Assembly (NCBI GenBank): GCA_948619685.1
Contig: CAPGOD010000002.1
Location: 1 to 64,000, forward strand
From: an uncultured Anaeroplasmataceae bacterium
Lineage (GTDB): Bacteria > Bacillota_I > Bacilli_A > Acholeplasmatales > Anaeroplasmataceae
Direction of reading: 5' to 3'
Length of the DNA: 64,000 nucleotides
The notes under the pieces: model-generated
Seen by the model: only the letters and a program-made list of their open reading frames with translations
What the model was told of the DNA's origin: nothing
Databases searched by the model: none
Translations under genes and position numbers: made by a program
In this document: positions 8,970 to 13,414 of the stretch, one piece after another
How the letters are laid out: every line of letters begins with the position of its first letter
Numbering within the stretch: the first letter of the stretch is position 1

Positions 8970-10151
8970 TTAACCATTGTGCTTCAATAGATATTCTCTC
9001 GACACATTTTTGAAGCTCTGCTGTCCATCAACACTTCGGTATACGAACCCCTCTCTTTTTACCTTTGGATTGATTTCACTATACCCATCAGCTTCCAGCT
9101 TCATTTCTTCCATAGTCTTAGGCAACACATATTCTGTATCAGTAATTGGCACATTCTTTAATCCATTCTGTTCGCAGAATTTAGCCATATCTACGGCTCC
9201 AAGACGTACACCGTCAACAATCAGATTGAATACAAATAACTCATTCTCTTTCAGCTTATATGGATTACCTTGAACTGATCCAACACCCTCTCCTTGGAGA
9301 ACCACTCTGTTATATCCATTCTCCATAGCAAACTTAGTCAAAATAATTTCAATGCCATACTTATCTGCCAGCTCCCAATAGATATTTGACTCATGATATG
9401 TTTCCTGATTTCTATCTGCCTGTCTTACATTTCTACTACAAACAATAAACTCAAACTTATTCTTCTTGATTCTGTCTACAGCAAATGTGCAGCTTGTTCC
9501 ATCTAATTTTTCTGTCTTAATCCACTTATTAGTACTTTCCAGATAAAACGGAGCATTCTCAATTCGTGTTTCGTCTGTCTTAACAATCCACTTGGGAAAC
9601 TCTTTCGGATTATCTTTCTTCTTGCCAAAGAACAGGAACATGATTTTTCTGCCAAGTTTATATCTCATAATCTTTCGCACAAATGGTCTACTAAACAGCT
9701 TCTTGTGTCTCTGAGCCATAGATTTATATTTTGCATCTGGATCTACGTTGTTGGACTTTCTCTTAACATCTTCTTCACAAGAATAAGTAATTTTAAGACT
9801 TTCAGTCACGTCCGATCCAATAGCATTATCACTCAACTCTGGAAATAATGAAATCGGGAGTGCAAGTCCCTGACTAATAACCTTAAATTTCCCTAGCTTC
9901 ATTGTTTTTACCTTATAATGCTTTGTTGCTAAGAAAGCAAATCTTTCATCAGATTCAGGACATTTACTATCAATTTCAATGTACACGGCTAAATCTCCTG
10001 GCTTAAACTCTTCTTTCTTTGCGATACAAACCCATCCAAGGACTCCAATAAGTTCAATATTATCTGCTCCATCAATCGGTCTTACCCACTCAATTTTTTC
10101 AATATGTGCCAATGCTCTATCTGCCATATTAAATTTCTCCTTTTCTCTCAA
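8970..10151 (-). CDS. ATP-dependent RNA ligase (Rnl5/DraRnl-like) with N-terminal tRNA-binding-type OB domain
   Basis: KxDG nucleotidyltransferase motif KLDGTS; N-terminal VRPIDGADNIELIGVLGWVCIAKKEEFKPGDLAVYIEID resembles myf/tRNA_bind OB fold. Confidence 0.65.
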   Translation of the reverse strand: MREKEKFNMADRALAHIEKIEWVRPIDGADNIELIGVLGWVCIAKKEEFKPGDLAVYIEIDSKCPESDERFAFLATKHYKVKTMKLGKFKVISQGLALPISLFPELSDNAIGSDVTESLKITYSCEEDVKRKSNNVDPDAKYKSMAQRHKKLFSRPFVRKIMRYKLGRKIMFLFFGKKKDNPKEFPKWIVKTDETRIENAPFYLESTNKWIKTEKLDGTSCTFAVDRIKKNKFEFIVCSRNVRQADRNQETYHESNIYWELADKYGIEIILTKFAMENGYNRVVLQGEGVGSVQGNPYKLKENELFVFNLIVDGVRLGAVDMAKFCEQNGLKNVPITDTEYVLPKTMEEMKLEADGYSEINPKVKREGFVYRSVDGQQSFKNVSREYLLKHNG

Positions 10152-11022
10152 AAATCAACCTATTCGTATTAAATCCAGCAGCTCCCTTATGACCTCCACC
10201 ACCATATTTCTTTGCAATATTAGAAACATCCACAGTTTTTGAATACATACTATATGTCCATGTACCATTCCTTCCATTGAATGAAAATGGCATTAAAATA
10301 TCATATAAATCGTCATCCACAGATTTAAACCAATCACTACCAGCAAGTCCAACATTCATTGCATACACTTTATATCCCTCAAATTCTGTTTCAAAACCTT
10401 TGGACTCACAGTATTCTTTTGCAAAACTATCACGATACTTGATGATTACTTTTCCTTCTTCAATATATTTATTCTCCGCATCATCATCTAAAAGGTTATA
10501 CCAAATCTCGTTATCTGGGCTTTTATCGTATGCATCAAATCCCATATGAAAATATCTTGTATCAGCACCATATTCAAAAGCCCATACATCATAATCAGCA
10601 ATATATTTTGTAAACATAGGTGCATCTTTTGTCATAGAAATATCAAATTTTTTCGGATTGCCACCTCCTCTTTCAGTCATATGATGTAACCAACAATATG
10701 TAAGCATACAAGCGGCTATCCCGTCATATCTAATTCCACGAATAGGAATTTCAAAATCCGTATATCTTTCTATTGCTGATTTATGATGATCAATCCAGGT
10801 TACATCTTTTGTTATTTCTAACAGTTTTCTCATTTCGTCTGGCATAATTGAATAGTCAACAATATATACCTGCTCATTAGGATTTATCTTGTCAAAAGAA
10901 AATTCCATTCCATAATTGATAGGAATAAATTCTGACTCATATCCATCATATACTCCTGCACTTAAATACACCCAAAATGCAGCACATTTCCCATCATCAT
11001 CTACATGATAAAAACACTTCAA
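10129..11022 (-). CDS. DHH-family phosphoesterase (NrnA-like, DHH + DHHA1)
   Basis: IDHH motif and C-terminal GGGGHKGAAGF DHHA1 motif. Confidence 0.7.
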   Translation of the reverse strand: MKCFYHVDDDGKCAAFWVYLSAGVYDGYESEFIPINYGMEFSFDKINPNEQVYIVDYSIMPDEMRKLLEITKDVTWIDHHKSAIERYTDFEIPIRGIRYDGIAACMLTYCWLHHMTERGGGNPKKFDISMTKDAPMFTKYIADYDVWAFEYGADTRYFHMGFDAYDKSPDNEIWYNLLDDDAENKYIEEGKVIIKYRDSFAKEYCESKGFETEFEGYKVYAMNVGLAGSDWFKSVDDDLYDILMPFSFNGRNGTWTYSMYSKTVDVSNIAKKYGGGGHKGAAGFNTNRLIFERKGEI

Positions 11023-11037
11023 ATTATCAAACCCTCC

Positions 11038-12399
11038 TTAAAATTTTATCCAACCATCTCTAACACCTGTCATCCAATAAACCAAATCATCTTTATTATT
11101 TTCTAATTCTCCATCTATAACACATTTCAGTATCTCATTTAACCAATACCCAATATCTTTACCTTCTTTGAGTTTCATCACCTCTTTTACATCGTTACCA
11201 TTAACCGCTAAATCCTTTAATGAGAAACAAGATTTCTCAGATAATATTTCTTCAAGAATATTTTCTATATTATTTATTTTCTCTATCCGAGATTCTTCAT
11301 AATCCGGTTTTTGTCCTTTAATATCCGCTTTCCTGACTTCTAACAACCGCCTAAACTGCTTTTCACCGATTTTATTAAGCCATCTCTTAACATACTTCTT
11401 TCCAACTTCAAAAGTAGCATCGTGATAATATACCAGTTCTACTACATTATTTCTGGTTTCATTATCAAATCTAAGACGTTTCATAATAGTGTCAGTAATA
11501 TCAGAACTTACTTTTCCATGACCTTTAAAGTGCCTAATACCATCTTCTCCATCCTGATAAGAATGTGGCTTCCCAAAATCATGAAAGAAAACTGCAAGCC
11601 TTACAATTAAATCATCCGATTCACATTTCTCTATCGCATGTACTGTATGATCAAATACATCATATGCATGATATGGATTATCCTGTTGAAAACCTATCAT
11701 ATCTTTTAATTCTGGGATAAATAAAGAGAACACATCGGGATACAAAACTAATTCCACACAGAACTGATTAGAAGCAACTATTTTACAAAATTCACTGTTA
11801 ATTCTTTCAACGGAAATATTCTTTAACCGCTCATATTGTCGATCTATTTCAAACATTGTTTCTGGAAACCCTGCAAAACCTAACTGTGCTTCAAATCTTA
11901 TTGCTCTGAGTATTCGCAGAGCATCTTCATTAAACCTGTCTTCTGCGGATCCAACACATCGAATCTTTTTATATTTGATATCCTCCATGCCATTAAACGG
12001 ATCAATTAAACCAGTTTTAGGATTGTATGCCATAGCATTAATCGTAAAATCTCTTCTCCGTAAATCTTCAACCAGATTCTTTGTAAATGTTACATTATCA
12101 GGTCTACGATTATCAGAGTAATCTCCGTCAATCCGATAAGTTGTTACCTCAAATGGTTCCTTATTTATTAAAATTGTTATTGTGCCATGCTGAAGACCAG
12201 TCGGAATAATTTCTTCATTGGGAAATGCCTTCAATATCTCATCAGGAGCGGCAGATGTGCATATGTCATAGTCATGTGGTTTTCTTCCCAACACGCTATC
12301 CCTTACACAGCCGCCTACCATGTATGCCTCATGTCCACATTTCTCTAATTCCTGCATGATATAACTTACTGATACAGGAACTTCTATACTAAATCTCAT
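11038..12399 (-). CDS. cca: CCA-adding tRNA nucleotidyltransferase with HD domain
   Basis: GGCVRD motif, RRDFTINAMA, HD motif AVFFHDFGKP. Confidence 0.8.
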   Translation of the reverse strand: MRFSIEVPVSVSYIMQELEKCGHEAYMVGGCVRDSVLGRKPHDYDICTSAAPDEILKAFPNEEIIPTGLQHGTITILINKEPFEVTTYRIDGDYSDNRRPDNVTFTKNLVEDLRRRDFTINAMAYNPKTGLIDPFNGMEDIKYKKIRCVGSAEDRFNEDALRILRAIRFEAQLGFAGFPETMFEIDRQYERLKNISVERINSEFCKIVASNQFCVELVLYPDVFSLFIPELKDMIGFQQDNPYHAYDVFDHTVHAIEKCESDDLIVRLAVFFHDFGKPHSYQDGEDGIRHFKGHGKVSSDITDTIMKRLRFDNETRNNVVELVYYHDATFEVGKKYVKRWLNKIGEKQFRRLLEVRKADIKGQKPDYEESRIEKINNIENILEEILSEKSCFSLKDLAVNGNDVKEVMKLKEGKDIGYWLNEILKCVIDGELENNKDDLVYWMTGVRDGWIKF

Positions 12400-13414
12400 T
12401 TTTCACCACTCTCTCATTCACACTTGCTACAAATTCATTGATCCGCTTATAATCTGGATTATCAGGAAGACTCGTATTATTCTTTGCATACTCTAACTTC
12501 TTCTCGTAATCATCAACCATTTCATAAAATTCAGGAATTGGTTGTCTGTCCACATCAAGAAACTTTCCATTACGAATATCCATAAGAAGTTCATGCTCTT
12601 TTTCTCTATATGTTACAATCTTTTCATGTTCAAGAATATCAAGACACATCATATAAAGCCTGATAAGGTGCATCATGTGCTTTCCCAGCTTATTATGTTC
12701 AATGGCATTTTTATTTCTCTTGCCAATCTTAGAATAATCCTTCACAACATTATTCATTTCAGACCACATTGACTTATAATCTCTCAATGGATAATGATGT
12801 AAATTTACATCCATAAAAATTTCTGTATCATACTCTTCTTGTTCAGATTTATCAATATATAATCTGATATTATCTTCTTCAAAATGAAAATACTTCTCTG
12901 GGAAAGTATGAAATGCGTTCATAATACTGTTTAGAATATGTCTTTCTCTCTGTTCCTGATTAACTAATCTAACAGCTTTATTGTCCAACCGCCTTAATTG
13001 TGCTGTCGCATATGAACCAAATGTATGAACAGCTTTTTTTGACAAAAACAAATTTGAATTATTTAACAACTCTTGTCCTATTGGACTTATATATAAATAA
13101 TGTTTTTTCTTTAAACCAAGCAATTCAATAACATTTGGATTACATCCAGATAATAATTTTATGATTTTATTAAAGGAATAAATAACTGTATCTGTTTTTT
13201 TATCTTCCACTTGTTCAAAACCATTCCCTAATAAAATTTCATTTTTTGTATTTAATGATATACCTCTTATATCTATGTCGCTTTCCCCGTCTATTGCTGT
13301 TCCATATGCATATGAACCACCTAAACCAATCAAAATAATATTATCACCTAAATGCTTATTATTTTTCAAAAAATCATATTCATTTTTCTTTAACAAATCA
13401 ATTAATTTAATCAT
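12389..13414 (-). CDS. Pol-beta-fold nucleotidyltransferase with C-terminal helical domain
   Basis: GGSYAYGTAIDGESDIDIRGI (GS...DxD) nucleotidyltransferase motif. Confidence 0.55.
   Translation of the reverse strand: MIKLIDLLKKNEYDFLKNNKHLGDNIILIGLGGSYAYGTAIDGESDIDIRGISLNTKNEILLGNGFEQVEDKKTDTVIYSFNKIIKLLSGCNPNVIELLGLKKKHYLYISPIGQELLNNSNLFLSKKAVHTFGSYATAQLRRLDNKAVRLVNQEQRERHILNSIMNAFHTFPEKYFHFEEDNIRLYIDKSEQEEYDTEIFMDVNLHHYPLRDYKSMWSEMNNVVKDYSKIGKRNKNAIEHNKLGKHMMHLIRLYMMCLDILEHEKIVTYREKEHELLMDIRNGKFLDVDRQPIPEFYEMVDDYEKKLEYAKNNTSLPDNPDYKRINEFVASVNERVVKNEI

Follow-up and report, generated by a model that had tools for sequence, protein, structure and literature searches.

What do four genes packed end to end in a stretch of phage-like DNA do together, and do they belong together at all? 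The genes in question lie in a 64-kb window (by which we mean the whole stretch analyzed, at its full length: 64,000 nucleotides (nt), 33% GC, of contig CAPGOD010000002.1, assembly GCA_948619685.1, from an uncultured Anaeroplasmataceae bacterium), and they form four back-to-back minus-strand open reading frames (ORFs), from 13414 to 8970, for the nucleotidyltransferase RlaP, a CCA-adding enzyme, a DHH phosphoesterase and an Rnl5 ligase. An earlier interpretation of the bare letters (hereafter the sequence-only reading) had proposed that they make up a co-directional cassette for repair of RNA, and especially of tRNA. The ORFs are indeed found on the minus strand at exactly the span it claimed, and its domain assignments, ‘Rnl5-like’ included, are all borne out by profile, PHROG, PDB and fold matches. 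As to the single cassette, relatives tell a different story: the genes do co-occur there, but not as one conserved unit of four. What is conserved, across contigs of phages and prophages as low as about 55–65% in identity, is RlaP-(X)-CCA-DHH, where X is a further gene present in some of them, and the exact four-gene order is found in the window and in one 129-kb viral contig only (L001/L063, 85–99% identity). The adjacency of the ligase to this block is recent.

We consider it moderately likely that the genes represent an accessory module with which the phage restores RNA ends that have been damaged, mostly the 3′ ends of tRNA, built from two separate blocks, with functions predicted from sequence. 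The first and conserved block would consist of RlaP, the CCA-adding enzyme with its HD domain and the DHH/DHHA1 phosphoesterase, and the second of the Rnl5 ligase. The repair would be centered on the tRNA acceptor end, because the pairing of RlaP with the CCA-adding enzyme is steady, with DHH and sometimes Thg1 as additional members.

Gene Order in Relatives

Three sets of loci were compared, one chosen by the DHH protein (62 viral loci, along with genome and metagenome contigs), one of 80 loci chosen by RlaP, which is less biased than the former (roughly 450 RlaP-bearing viral contigs are known), and one of 80 loci chosen by Rnl5 (roughly 135 Rnl5-bearing viral contigs are known). RlaP is encoded at most 3 kb away in 63 of the 71 DHH loci. 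Among the RlaP-chosen loci, the arrangement RlaP-CCA is found 20 times, RlaP-CCA-DHH 9 times and RlaP-DHH 3 times, and the remaining 7 loci with a tested partner carry a kinase-phosphatase-ligase, Thg1, X or a kinase-HD protein; overall, CCA is encoded beside RlaP in 32 and DHH in 12 of the 80. The RlaP family owes its name to an association with RNA ligases; a ligase near RlaP is found in the window (Rnl5 downstream, past CCA and DHH) and is only occasional within 6 kb of RlaP among relatives.

Protein X, of 313–318 amino acids (aa) and with no Pfam or PHROG match, is encoded between RlaP and CCA. The order RlaP-X-CCA-DHH is found in L002–L006, L143, L145, and L147 (Lachnospiraceae bacterium A4), and probably also in L055, in which an X-sized gap separates RlaP from CCA. 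The order without X is found in L001, L148, and L116/L121, X being missing from both the window and L001. Other repair genes also appear in this context. In a 223-kb contig (L143), Thg1 directly follows DHH, and in a 204-kb contig (L145) RtcB is encoded three genes upstream. In a Christensenella-binned contig (L150:2180-6311), RlaP and DHH are adjacent and are followed by a 763-aa fusion of a kinase, a metallophosphatase and an Rnl1-type ligase, and, as such a fusion is a classical RNA repair enzyme, this order ties the DHH protein to RNA repair. Even in about 50 more distant 160-kb phages, genes for DHH (40% identity) and RlaP (29%) lie two genes apart. Distant cellular homologs of the DHH protein (in Methanosarcina, Anaerolineales, and others) have no RlaP or CCA neighbors and are thus uninformative on repair.

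The closest genome matches are to Lachnospiraceae bacterium A4 and Eubacterium plexicaudatum ASF492 (protein X 100% identical), both of them mouse-gut isolates, and the element is therefore a large phage or prophage of Lachnospiraceae. No close relative was found among GenBank phages, the DNA matches being short stretches of about 67% identity to Clostridioides phages. Likewise, GenBank phages contain no close homolog of the DHH protein (best about 31%). One of them, AR1086-1, encodes an RlaP homolog annotated as hypothetical, with no gene annotated as a CCA-adding enzyme, a DHH phosphoesterase or an RNA ligase within 18.5 kb around it.

Could these genes serve housekeeping instead of repair? 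The CCA-adding enzyme would then mature tRNAs of phage or host whose genes lack CCA, the DHH protein would be an ordinary nanoRNase turning short RNA fragments back into nucleotides, Rnl5 would act on DNA/RNA junctions in replication or repair, and the genes would be mere neighbors in an accessory region. We hold this to be unlikely, even though a number of observations agree with it. Clusters of tRNA genes, most without an encoded CCA, are found within 8 kb of the module in more distant relatives, namely L055 (3335-3833), L145 (11559-16593), L116 and L120/L121 (near 16000-16800), and L143 (16408-16479); nanoRNases and pAp phosphatases are among the fold matches of the DHH protein, and the JGI label for the DHH homologs is ‘oligoribonuclease NrnB’; loss of DraRnl makes Deinococcus radiation-sensitive and slows its genome reassembly (PMC5397189); and the region is highly mosaic. 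However, no tRNA gene is present within the 64-kb window itself, the RlaP-CCA-DHH order has outlasted many rearrangements and divergence to about 55–65% identity, RlaP-DHH of L150 stands beside a classical kinase-phosphatase-ligase repair enzyme, and RlaP favors damaged RNA substrates in vitro (PMC12776372).

The packing of the four genes is of less help in defining a unit. The RlaP and CCA genes overlap by 11 nt, a 15-nt gap with GGAGG separates CCA from DHH, and a 1-nt gap separates DHH from the ATG start of the ligase, preceded by AAGGAG. All sizeable genes of the window are on the minus strand, close packing on the same strand is the norm across it, and the packing at the cluster is unremarkable, as most junctions in the window are equally tight. 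No minus-strand terminators were predicted between 6800 and 16800, and a promoter and terminator scan recovered no operon boundaries. With the junctions mostly tight and terminators not predicted nearby, packing alone is insufficient to define an operon. No Rfam families were found at gathering thresholds across the window. Each of the four proteins retains its catalytic motifs.

RlaP and Its Homing Endonuclease

The RlaP gene (12389-13414, minus strand) is intact, encodes 341 aa and matches Pfam PF10127 at 3.6e-16 (60 bits against a cut-off of 23), NTP_transf_2, and PHROG 388 at 5e-52; no match was found among PDB sequences. Its Pol-beta motifs, GGSYAYG (32-38), DIDIRG (46-51) and TDT (74-76), are conserved across homologs. 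The Pseudomonas RlaP adds one or two nucleoside monophosphates to an RNA 3′-OH, preferring damaged RNA in vitro, and its products suit 5′-phosphate ligases; this tailing activity is known from Pseudomonas homologs only, and the protein has been characterized in vitro only (PMC12776372).

This first gene of the cluster is remodeled by a homing endonuclease, and is still intact. The free-standing endonuclease (13407-14576, minus strand, 389 aa from an ATG at 14576) is inserted in RlaP at the GS motif of the nucleotidyltransferase. Its nuclease core is Vsr-like (D...ExH.K) and is accompanied by treble-clef zinc fingers and, at the C-terminus, by NUMOD1 modules for DNA binding, with matches to Pfam NUMOD1 (8.7e-8), DUF4379, an I-HmuI NUMOD-like domain, and PHROGs 4538, 559, and 9084. 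Upstream of it lies a remnant of the original RlaP 5′ end (14557-14691, minus strand, 44 codons), ending just past the GS motif (GGSHAYG) and sharing 68% identity with the N-terminus of the window RlaP over 31 aa. Its DNA matches the 5′ end of the L001 RlaP gene, which is uninterrupted, at about 87% identity up to GCTTATGG and diverges after it. The window gene, in turn, is about 100% identical to that of L001 from nt 421 onward, but only about 60% identical over nt 1-420 (13414 to about 12995). This fits an endonuclease that arrived along with a diverged 5′ part of RlaP, presumably resistant to cleavage, that would have replaced the first 420 nt. An endonuclease of the GIY-YIG type, unrelated to that of the window (BLASTP E 2.4), occupies the same RlaP site in L004–L006, and has left a similar remnant (L005:3753-4660). 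A group I or group II intron at the site was also considered and was rejected, as a complete second N-terminus follows the endonuclease; Rfam detects no intron RNA at E<=1 in 13200-14800.

The CCA-Adding Enzyme

The second gene (11038-12399, minus strand) encodes a class II CCA-adding tRNA nucleotidyltransferase of 453 aa with an internal HD domain, as judged from matches to PolyA_pol (1.3e-39), tRNA_NucTran2_2, NCBIfam PRK13299 ‘CCA tRNA nucleotidyltransferase’ (301 bits, cut-off 290), and the CCA-adding enzymes 6ibp and 1miv of the PDB (8e-61). The HD domain (PF01966, residues 244-330) scores 4e-6 (27.5 bits against a cut-off of 22), and the motifs include GGCVRD 29 and DYD 43 (motif A), RRD 115 (motif B), EDALR 158 (motif D), and an HD dyad at 273. 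In joining a class II CCA head to an HD phosphohydrolase, the enzyme resembles Cca of E. coli, whose model PRK10885 spans the HD region of the window protein (5e-35). However, its head is nearest to the enzymes of Bacillales (PRK13299; 6ibp, 1miv), it scores well under the cut-off for the E. coli equivalog, and its HD activity is a predicted one. Work by Yakunin et al. in 2004 is said to have established the HD domain of E. coli Cca as both a cyclic phosphodiesterase and a phosphatase.

The DHH Phosphoesterase

The third gene (10129-11022, minus strand) has a TTG start after GGAGG and encodes a stand-alone DHH/DHHA1 phosphoesterase of the NrnA/NrnB type (297 aa). Its Pfam scores are below the gathering thresholds (DHH 20.9 vs. 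28.1, DHHA1 21.1 vs. 25.9), and this is offset by strong matches to PHROG 4771 (1.2e-46) and to known folds. The AlphaFold2 model has a predicted local distance difference test (pLDDT) score of 91, and Foldseek matches it to 6mtz, DhhP, TM1595, NrnA of Mycobacterium tuberculosis, a PAP phosphatase, and GdpP (5e-11 to 1e-7), with a probability of 1.00 for 6mtz, 9r7o, 5o25, 4ls9, 8a8k, and 5xsi; the window protein thus has the two-domain DHH and DHHA1 fold. The DHH motifs I–IV, HVDDDG 6 (H6/D8/D10), D56, D78-H79-H80, and DYD 143 (D143/D145), and the DHHA1 motif GGGH 275 (G275-H278) are invariant across 32 homologs. We infer an end-healing role for this protein from its gene neighborhood, and hold it with less confidence than the overall reading of the module as RNA repair.

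A different role for such a protein would be in anti-defense, through destruction of the signaling nucleotides (cyclic oligoadenylates, cyclic dinucleotides, linear products) of CBASS, type III CRISPR, and Thoeris-like systems. The fold matches include GdpP, pApA/pGpG phosphodiesterases and DhhP, a role of this kind has been given to phage DHH enzymes in the survey of jumbo phages (PMC7824862), and the homolog in L007 is encoded about 2 kb from the Thoeris inhibitor Tad3. We still find this role improbable for the window protein: RlaP lies within 3 kb in those 63 of 71 DHH loci, the gene itself follows CCA after 15 nt and precedes the ligase start by 1 nt, and the DHH gene of L150 is found between RlaP and the kinase-phosphatase-ligase.

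The Rnl5 Ligase and the Missing Kinase

The last gene (8970-10151, minus strand) encodes an RNA ligase of the NgrRnl/DraRnl type. The ORF is of 393 aa from a TTG at 10151, and the true start is probably the ATG at 10127, one base past the DHH stop and with AAGGAG before it, for a protein of 385 aa. It has an OB domain (PF21189, PHA02142; 4.2e-23, residues 14-100) and an adenylyltransferase domain (PF09414; 1e-17, residues 209-381), with which it ends, there being no extra C-terminal part. It aligns with NgrRnl (PDB 5cot) over both domains (2e-38, residues 2-338 of the 340 of NgrRnl), and its KLDG (motif I; K207 counted from the ATG), LQGE, REG, and FK (motifs III–V) align with those of NgrRnl. 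This places it in the RNA ligase family Rnl5. The protein shares the OB and adenylyltransferase layout and the catalytic motifs of DraRnl and NgrRnl, but a basic insert lengthens its interdomain linker by about 45 aa relative to NgrRnl, and it matches NCBIfam TIGR02306 (RNA_lig_DRB0094) at 2e-26, its 92.5 bits being under the equivalog cut-off of 151. As a divergent member with a longer linker, it is therefore a homolog at the family level and not an equivalog. Rnl5 ligases (DraRnl, NgrRnl) seal 3′-OH/5′-PO4 nicks in duplexes in which the 3′-OH strand is RNA (PMC5397189).

Across the Rnl5-chosen set, 80 phage contigs of about 90–216 kb, the ligase is 73–95% identical, which implies purifying selection. 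In 69 of these loci a protein of 297 aa is encoded that combines an AAA_33 P-loop kinase with an HD domain, and in 66 its gene is immediately downstream of the ligase (for example, L121:7989-10061 and 65 more loci within L066–L142). This suggests that Rnl5 and kinase-HD form a two-gene heal-and-seal pair, and that the latter is the physiological partner of the poorly understood Rnl5 family; in Deinococcus, by comparison, the partner gene of Rnl5 encodes a DEDDh-like exonuclease. A scan of viral contigs with the L121 kinase-HD protein returned only the close clade of L121 itself and is thus uninformative on the contigs closest to the window. Kinase-HD is missing from 11 of the 80 loci, including the window, L063, and L064/65.

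In the window, a single Walker A motif is present among 105 minus-strand ORFs, that of an ABC ATPase; tblastn with the kinase-HD protein of relatives matches only the HD part of the CCA-adding enzyme; and Pfam scans of 47 window proteins detect no kinase. The statement in the sequence-only reading that a polynucleotide kinase is missing thus stands for the 64-kb window, along with the gap that it noted in the 5′ end chemistry. The gap is, however, not a design feature: as a kinase-HD gene normally accompanies the ligase but does not do so here, it is a lineage-specific absence. With kinase-HD adjacency being the norm elsewhere, in this lineage the ligase has been parted from its usual healing partner and set beside RlaP-CCA-DHH.

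Such a history also invites the question of whether the four-gene order is a chance product of recombination, endonuclease-driven or other, with the ligase, deprived of kinase-HD, non-functional for repair or decaying. Outside the window, the ligase stands beside the block in L001/L063 alone, 66 of the 80 relatives keep it with kinase-HD, a clear recombination scar is present at RlaP, and the flanking ABC-transporter island is found in L064/65 and L140 but not in L063. On the other hand, the ligase ORF is intact with all of its catalytic motifs conserved, its identity of 73–95% over 80 phage contigs speaks of purifying selection, its start, besides being coupled to the DHH stop, is served by a Shine-Dalgarno sequence of its own, and 5′-phosphate breaks need no kinase (PMC12445682). 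We judge such an origin doubtful, no more probable than the anti-signaling role of DHH. The survival of RlaP-CCA-DHH across rearrangements and the arrangement in L150 weaken each of these alternatives, housekeeping included.

Proposed Function

If the module does restore RNA ends, the HD domain and/or the DHH protein, both of them candidates by family only for removal of 3′-phosphate or cyclic phosphate, would clear a 3′-phosphate or a 2′,3′-cyclic phosphate, or trim damaged 3′ nucleotides, to leave a 3′-OH. RlaP could then put back on this 3′-OH the one or two nucleotides that the CCA enzyme cannot add, after which the latter would rebuild the CCA end, and 5′ ends could be restored by Thg1, whose gene lies elsewhere in the window. 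CCA-adding enzymes are well established in rebuilding tRNA 3′ ends, and Thg1-like enzymes extend 5′ ends. The ligase would seal 3′-OH/5′-phosphate nicks in base-paired RNA. As no kinase is encoded with it, it would be limited to breaks already possessing a 5′-phosphate, which it could seal directly, for example those made by metal-dependent tRNases of the Toprim or PIN type, or, for other breaks, would rely on a kinase encoded outside the window. The Toprim tRNase OLD, for example, leaves 5′-P/3′-OH ends that are ligatable without healing (PMC12445682).

A role in RNA and tRNA repair, as put forward in the sequence-only reading, is plausible and agrees with published work on RlaP, Rnl5, CCA enzymes, and Thg1 of large phages (PMC12776372; PMC7824862), even if the proposal needs correcting. 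A number of observations nevertheless weigh against it. The functions of the cluster proteins are all inferred, and for the nearest structural relatives of the DHH protein the substrates are dinucleotides (cyclic ones included), nanoRNA, and pAp instead of the ends of long RNAs. In 8 of the 71 DHH loci RlaP is not found nearby; the DHH gene of L007 is part of an island with a Thoeris inhibitor, and that of L149 is beside a GGDEF-EAL gene. In 41 of the 80 RlaP-chosen loci, none of the tested partners is found within 6 kb. The CCA-less tRNA genes of some relatives suggest that the CCA enzyme could serve tRNA maturation. As to the ligase, the window lacks a polynucleotide kinase, its adjacency to the first block is limited to the window and one relative, and their co-operation may be accidental in a highly mosaic region; moreover, the physiological role of Rnl5 is unsettled (‘uncharted’), with a DNA-repair phenotype for DraRnl (PMC5397189).

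A more specific scheme can be offered, though a speculative one. RlaP, CCA/HD, and DHH, joined in relatives by Thg1 and by X, the latter taken as a PolB-like mini-polymerase, may constitute a dedicated, ligase-independent pathway for rebuilding the tRNA acceptor end, in which DHH would trim or dephosphorylate the 3′ end, a new role for an NrnA/NrnB-like enzyme, and RlaP would put back lost nucleotides other than CCA, the discriminator base for one. The kinase-less Rnl5 would have been added here to seal 5′-phosphate nicks made in tRNA stems by metal-dependent Toprim or PIN defense nucleases.

Phage RNA repair is a known form of counter-defense, and both Rnl5 and RlaP are still without a settled biological role. 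The comparative data offer testable partnerships for them, RlaP with the CCA-adding enzyme and DHH, and Rnl5 with kinase-HD, and the window presents a natural kinase-less variant of Rnl5. If DHH does process RNA 3′ ends, this would widen the known roles of NrnA/NrnB-type enzymes and would revise the current view of the phage proteins as signal-degrading enzymes. The practical value is modest, these being candidate enzymes for RNA end chemistry and markers of phages resisting tRNA-cutting defenses.

Relation to Known Repair Systems

How much of this is new? RlaP, ligase, the CCA-adding enzyme, and Thg1 are already known as phage RNA-repair gear. For jumbo phages, Iyer et al. (2021, PMC7824862) list the same parts, with Thg1 occurring sporadically beside RlaP, a CCA-adding enzyme, and ATP-dependent RNA ligases, and also read them as counter-defense, and against such published surveys the toolkit of the window is not ‘unusually broad,’ as had been claimed. 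The survey does, however, file phage DHH proteins under anti-signaling nucleotide degradation and describes neither the RlaP-CCA-DHH block nor the pair of Rnl5 and kinase-HD, and the phages considered here are of about 110–220 kb and infect gut Clostridia.

Other systems share single elements with the module. In RlaP-containing RNA repair operons (Burroughs and Aravind, 2016), among them the RtcB-RlaP-RtcA system of Pseudomonas (Carruthers et al., preprint PMC12776372), the PF10127 Pol-beta nucleotidyltransferase RlaP is also found beside RNA repair enzymes, including a ligase that uses the 3′-OH ends it makes, but the steady neighbor of RlaP here and in most relatives is the CCA-adding enzyme, often with DHH, and not a ligase, and the window ligase is an Rnl5, not RtcB, with no RtcA present. 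In phage T4, Pnkp and Rnl1 counter the anticodon nuclease PrrC. That system has in common with the module a phage-borne repair of tRNA damage inflicted by the host and an ATP-dependent ligase that needs 3′-OH and 5′-phosphate. It differs in that the window has no polynucleotide kinase, its healing candidates are HD and DHH domains instead of the HAD phosphatase of Pnkp, the nick-sealing Rnl5 suits base-paired breaks and not anticodon loops, and CCA-adding and RlaP tailing enzymes are added. The bacterial Pnkp of the Pnkp/Hen1 system has its likeness in the kinase, metallophosphatase, and ligase fusion that directly follows RlaP-DHH in L150, but the window has no such fusion, and Hen1 was not seen. 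The differences from the known kind are thus the CCA-adding enzyme as the main partner of RlaP, DHH/DHHA1 as a frequent member, Rnl5 as the ligase, and the absence of kinase-HD here. What is modestly new is the consistent linkage of RlaP, CCA, and DHH, along with an Rnl5 that has no kinase, and part of this may already be found in Burroughs and Aravind (2016).

Other Genes of the Window

The Thg1-like 3′-5′ nucleotidyltransferase, placed at 33237 in the sequence-only reading, is confirmed there (33237-34112, minus strand, 22 kb from the cluster) by matches to Pfam Thg1 (8e-31; 107 bits for the catalytic domain against a gathering score of 29.2, with a weak Thg1C match) and PHROG 4717 (6e-91). 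Close downstream of it, past a 140-aa ORF with no family match, a UPF0004 ORF (just under the Pfam cut-off) and a radical SAM ORF (31691-32778, minus strand) look like a split or frameshifted tRNA methylthiotransferase of the MiaB/MtaB type. The two ‘Tpt1-like’ genes reported near 46 kb have no match to the Tpt1/KptA family: one (46763-46350, minus strand) encodes a PARP/DUF3990-type ADP-ribosyltransferase fold, with PARP/DUF3990 matches only, and the other (47219-46791, minus strand) a protein with no Pfam or NCBIfam match and a hit only to a PHROG of unknown function. The former (46350-46763) and an ADP-ribosylglycohydrolase (19518-20297, minus strand) suggest conflict functions based on ADP-ribosylation.

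Directly after the ligase (4616-8895, minus strand) an island encodes an ABC permease, an ABC ATPase, a 179-aa protein of no named family, another protein with a weak sub-threshold match to PspA/IM30, and a fusion of an NMT1-type binding protein with an OmpA domain; this ABC-transporter/PspA/OmpA island is common to L064/65 and L140 and is not present in L063. Mobile genes, all on the minus strand, include those for a reverse transcriptase (27545-28588), TnpB (OrfB_IS605/Cas12f-like; 25285-26340), a tyrosine integrase (49061-50065), a large serine recombinase (59648-60493), a second NUMOD-type homing endonuclease (50083-50802), and a GIY-YIG endonuclease (41360-41923), and they mark the window as a very mobile, mosaic accessory region. 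An 814-aa protein (16712-19156, minus strand) has a shoulder domain of the major vault protein (8e-22), which is unusual for a phage, along with weaker, sub-threshold matches to a vault repeat and an SPFH/Band 7 region. Finally, a 200-aa protein (3251-3853, minus strand) has a C-terminal domain matching the RecBCD inhibitor gp5.9 of phage T7 (2.4e-16).

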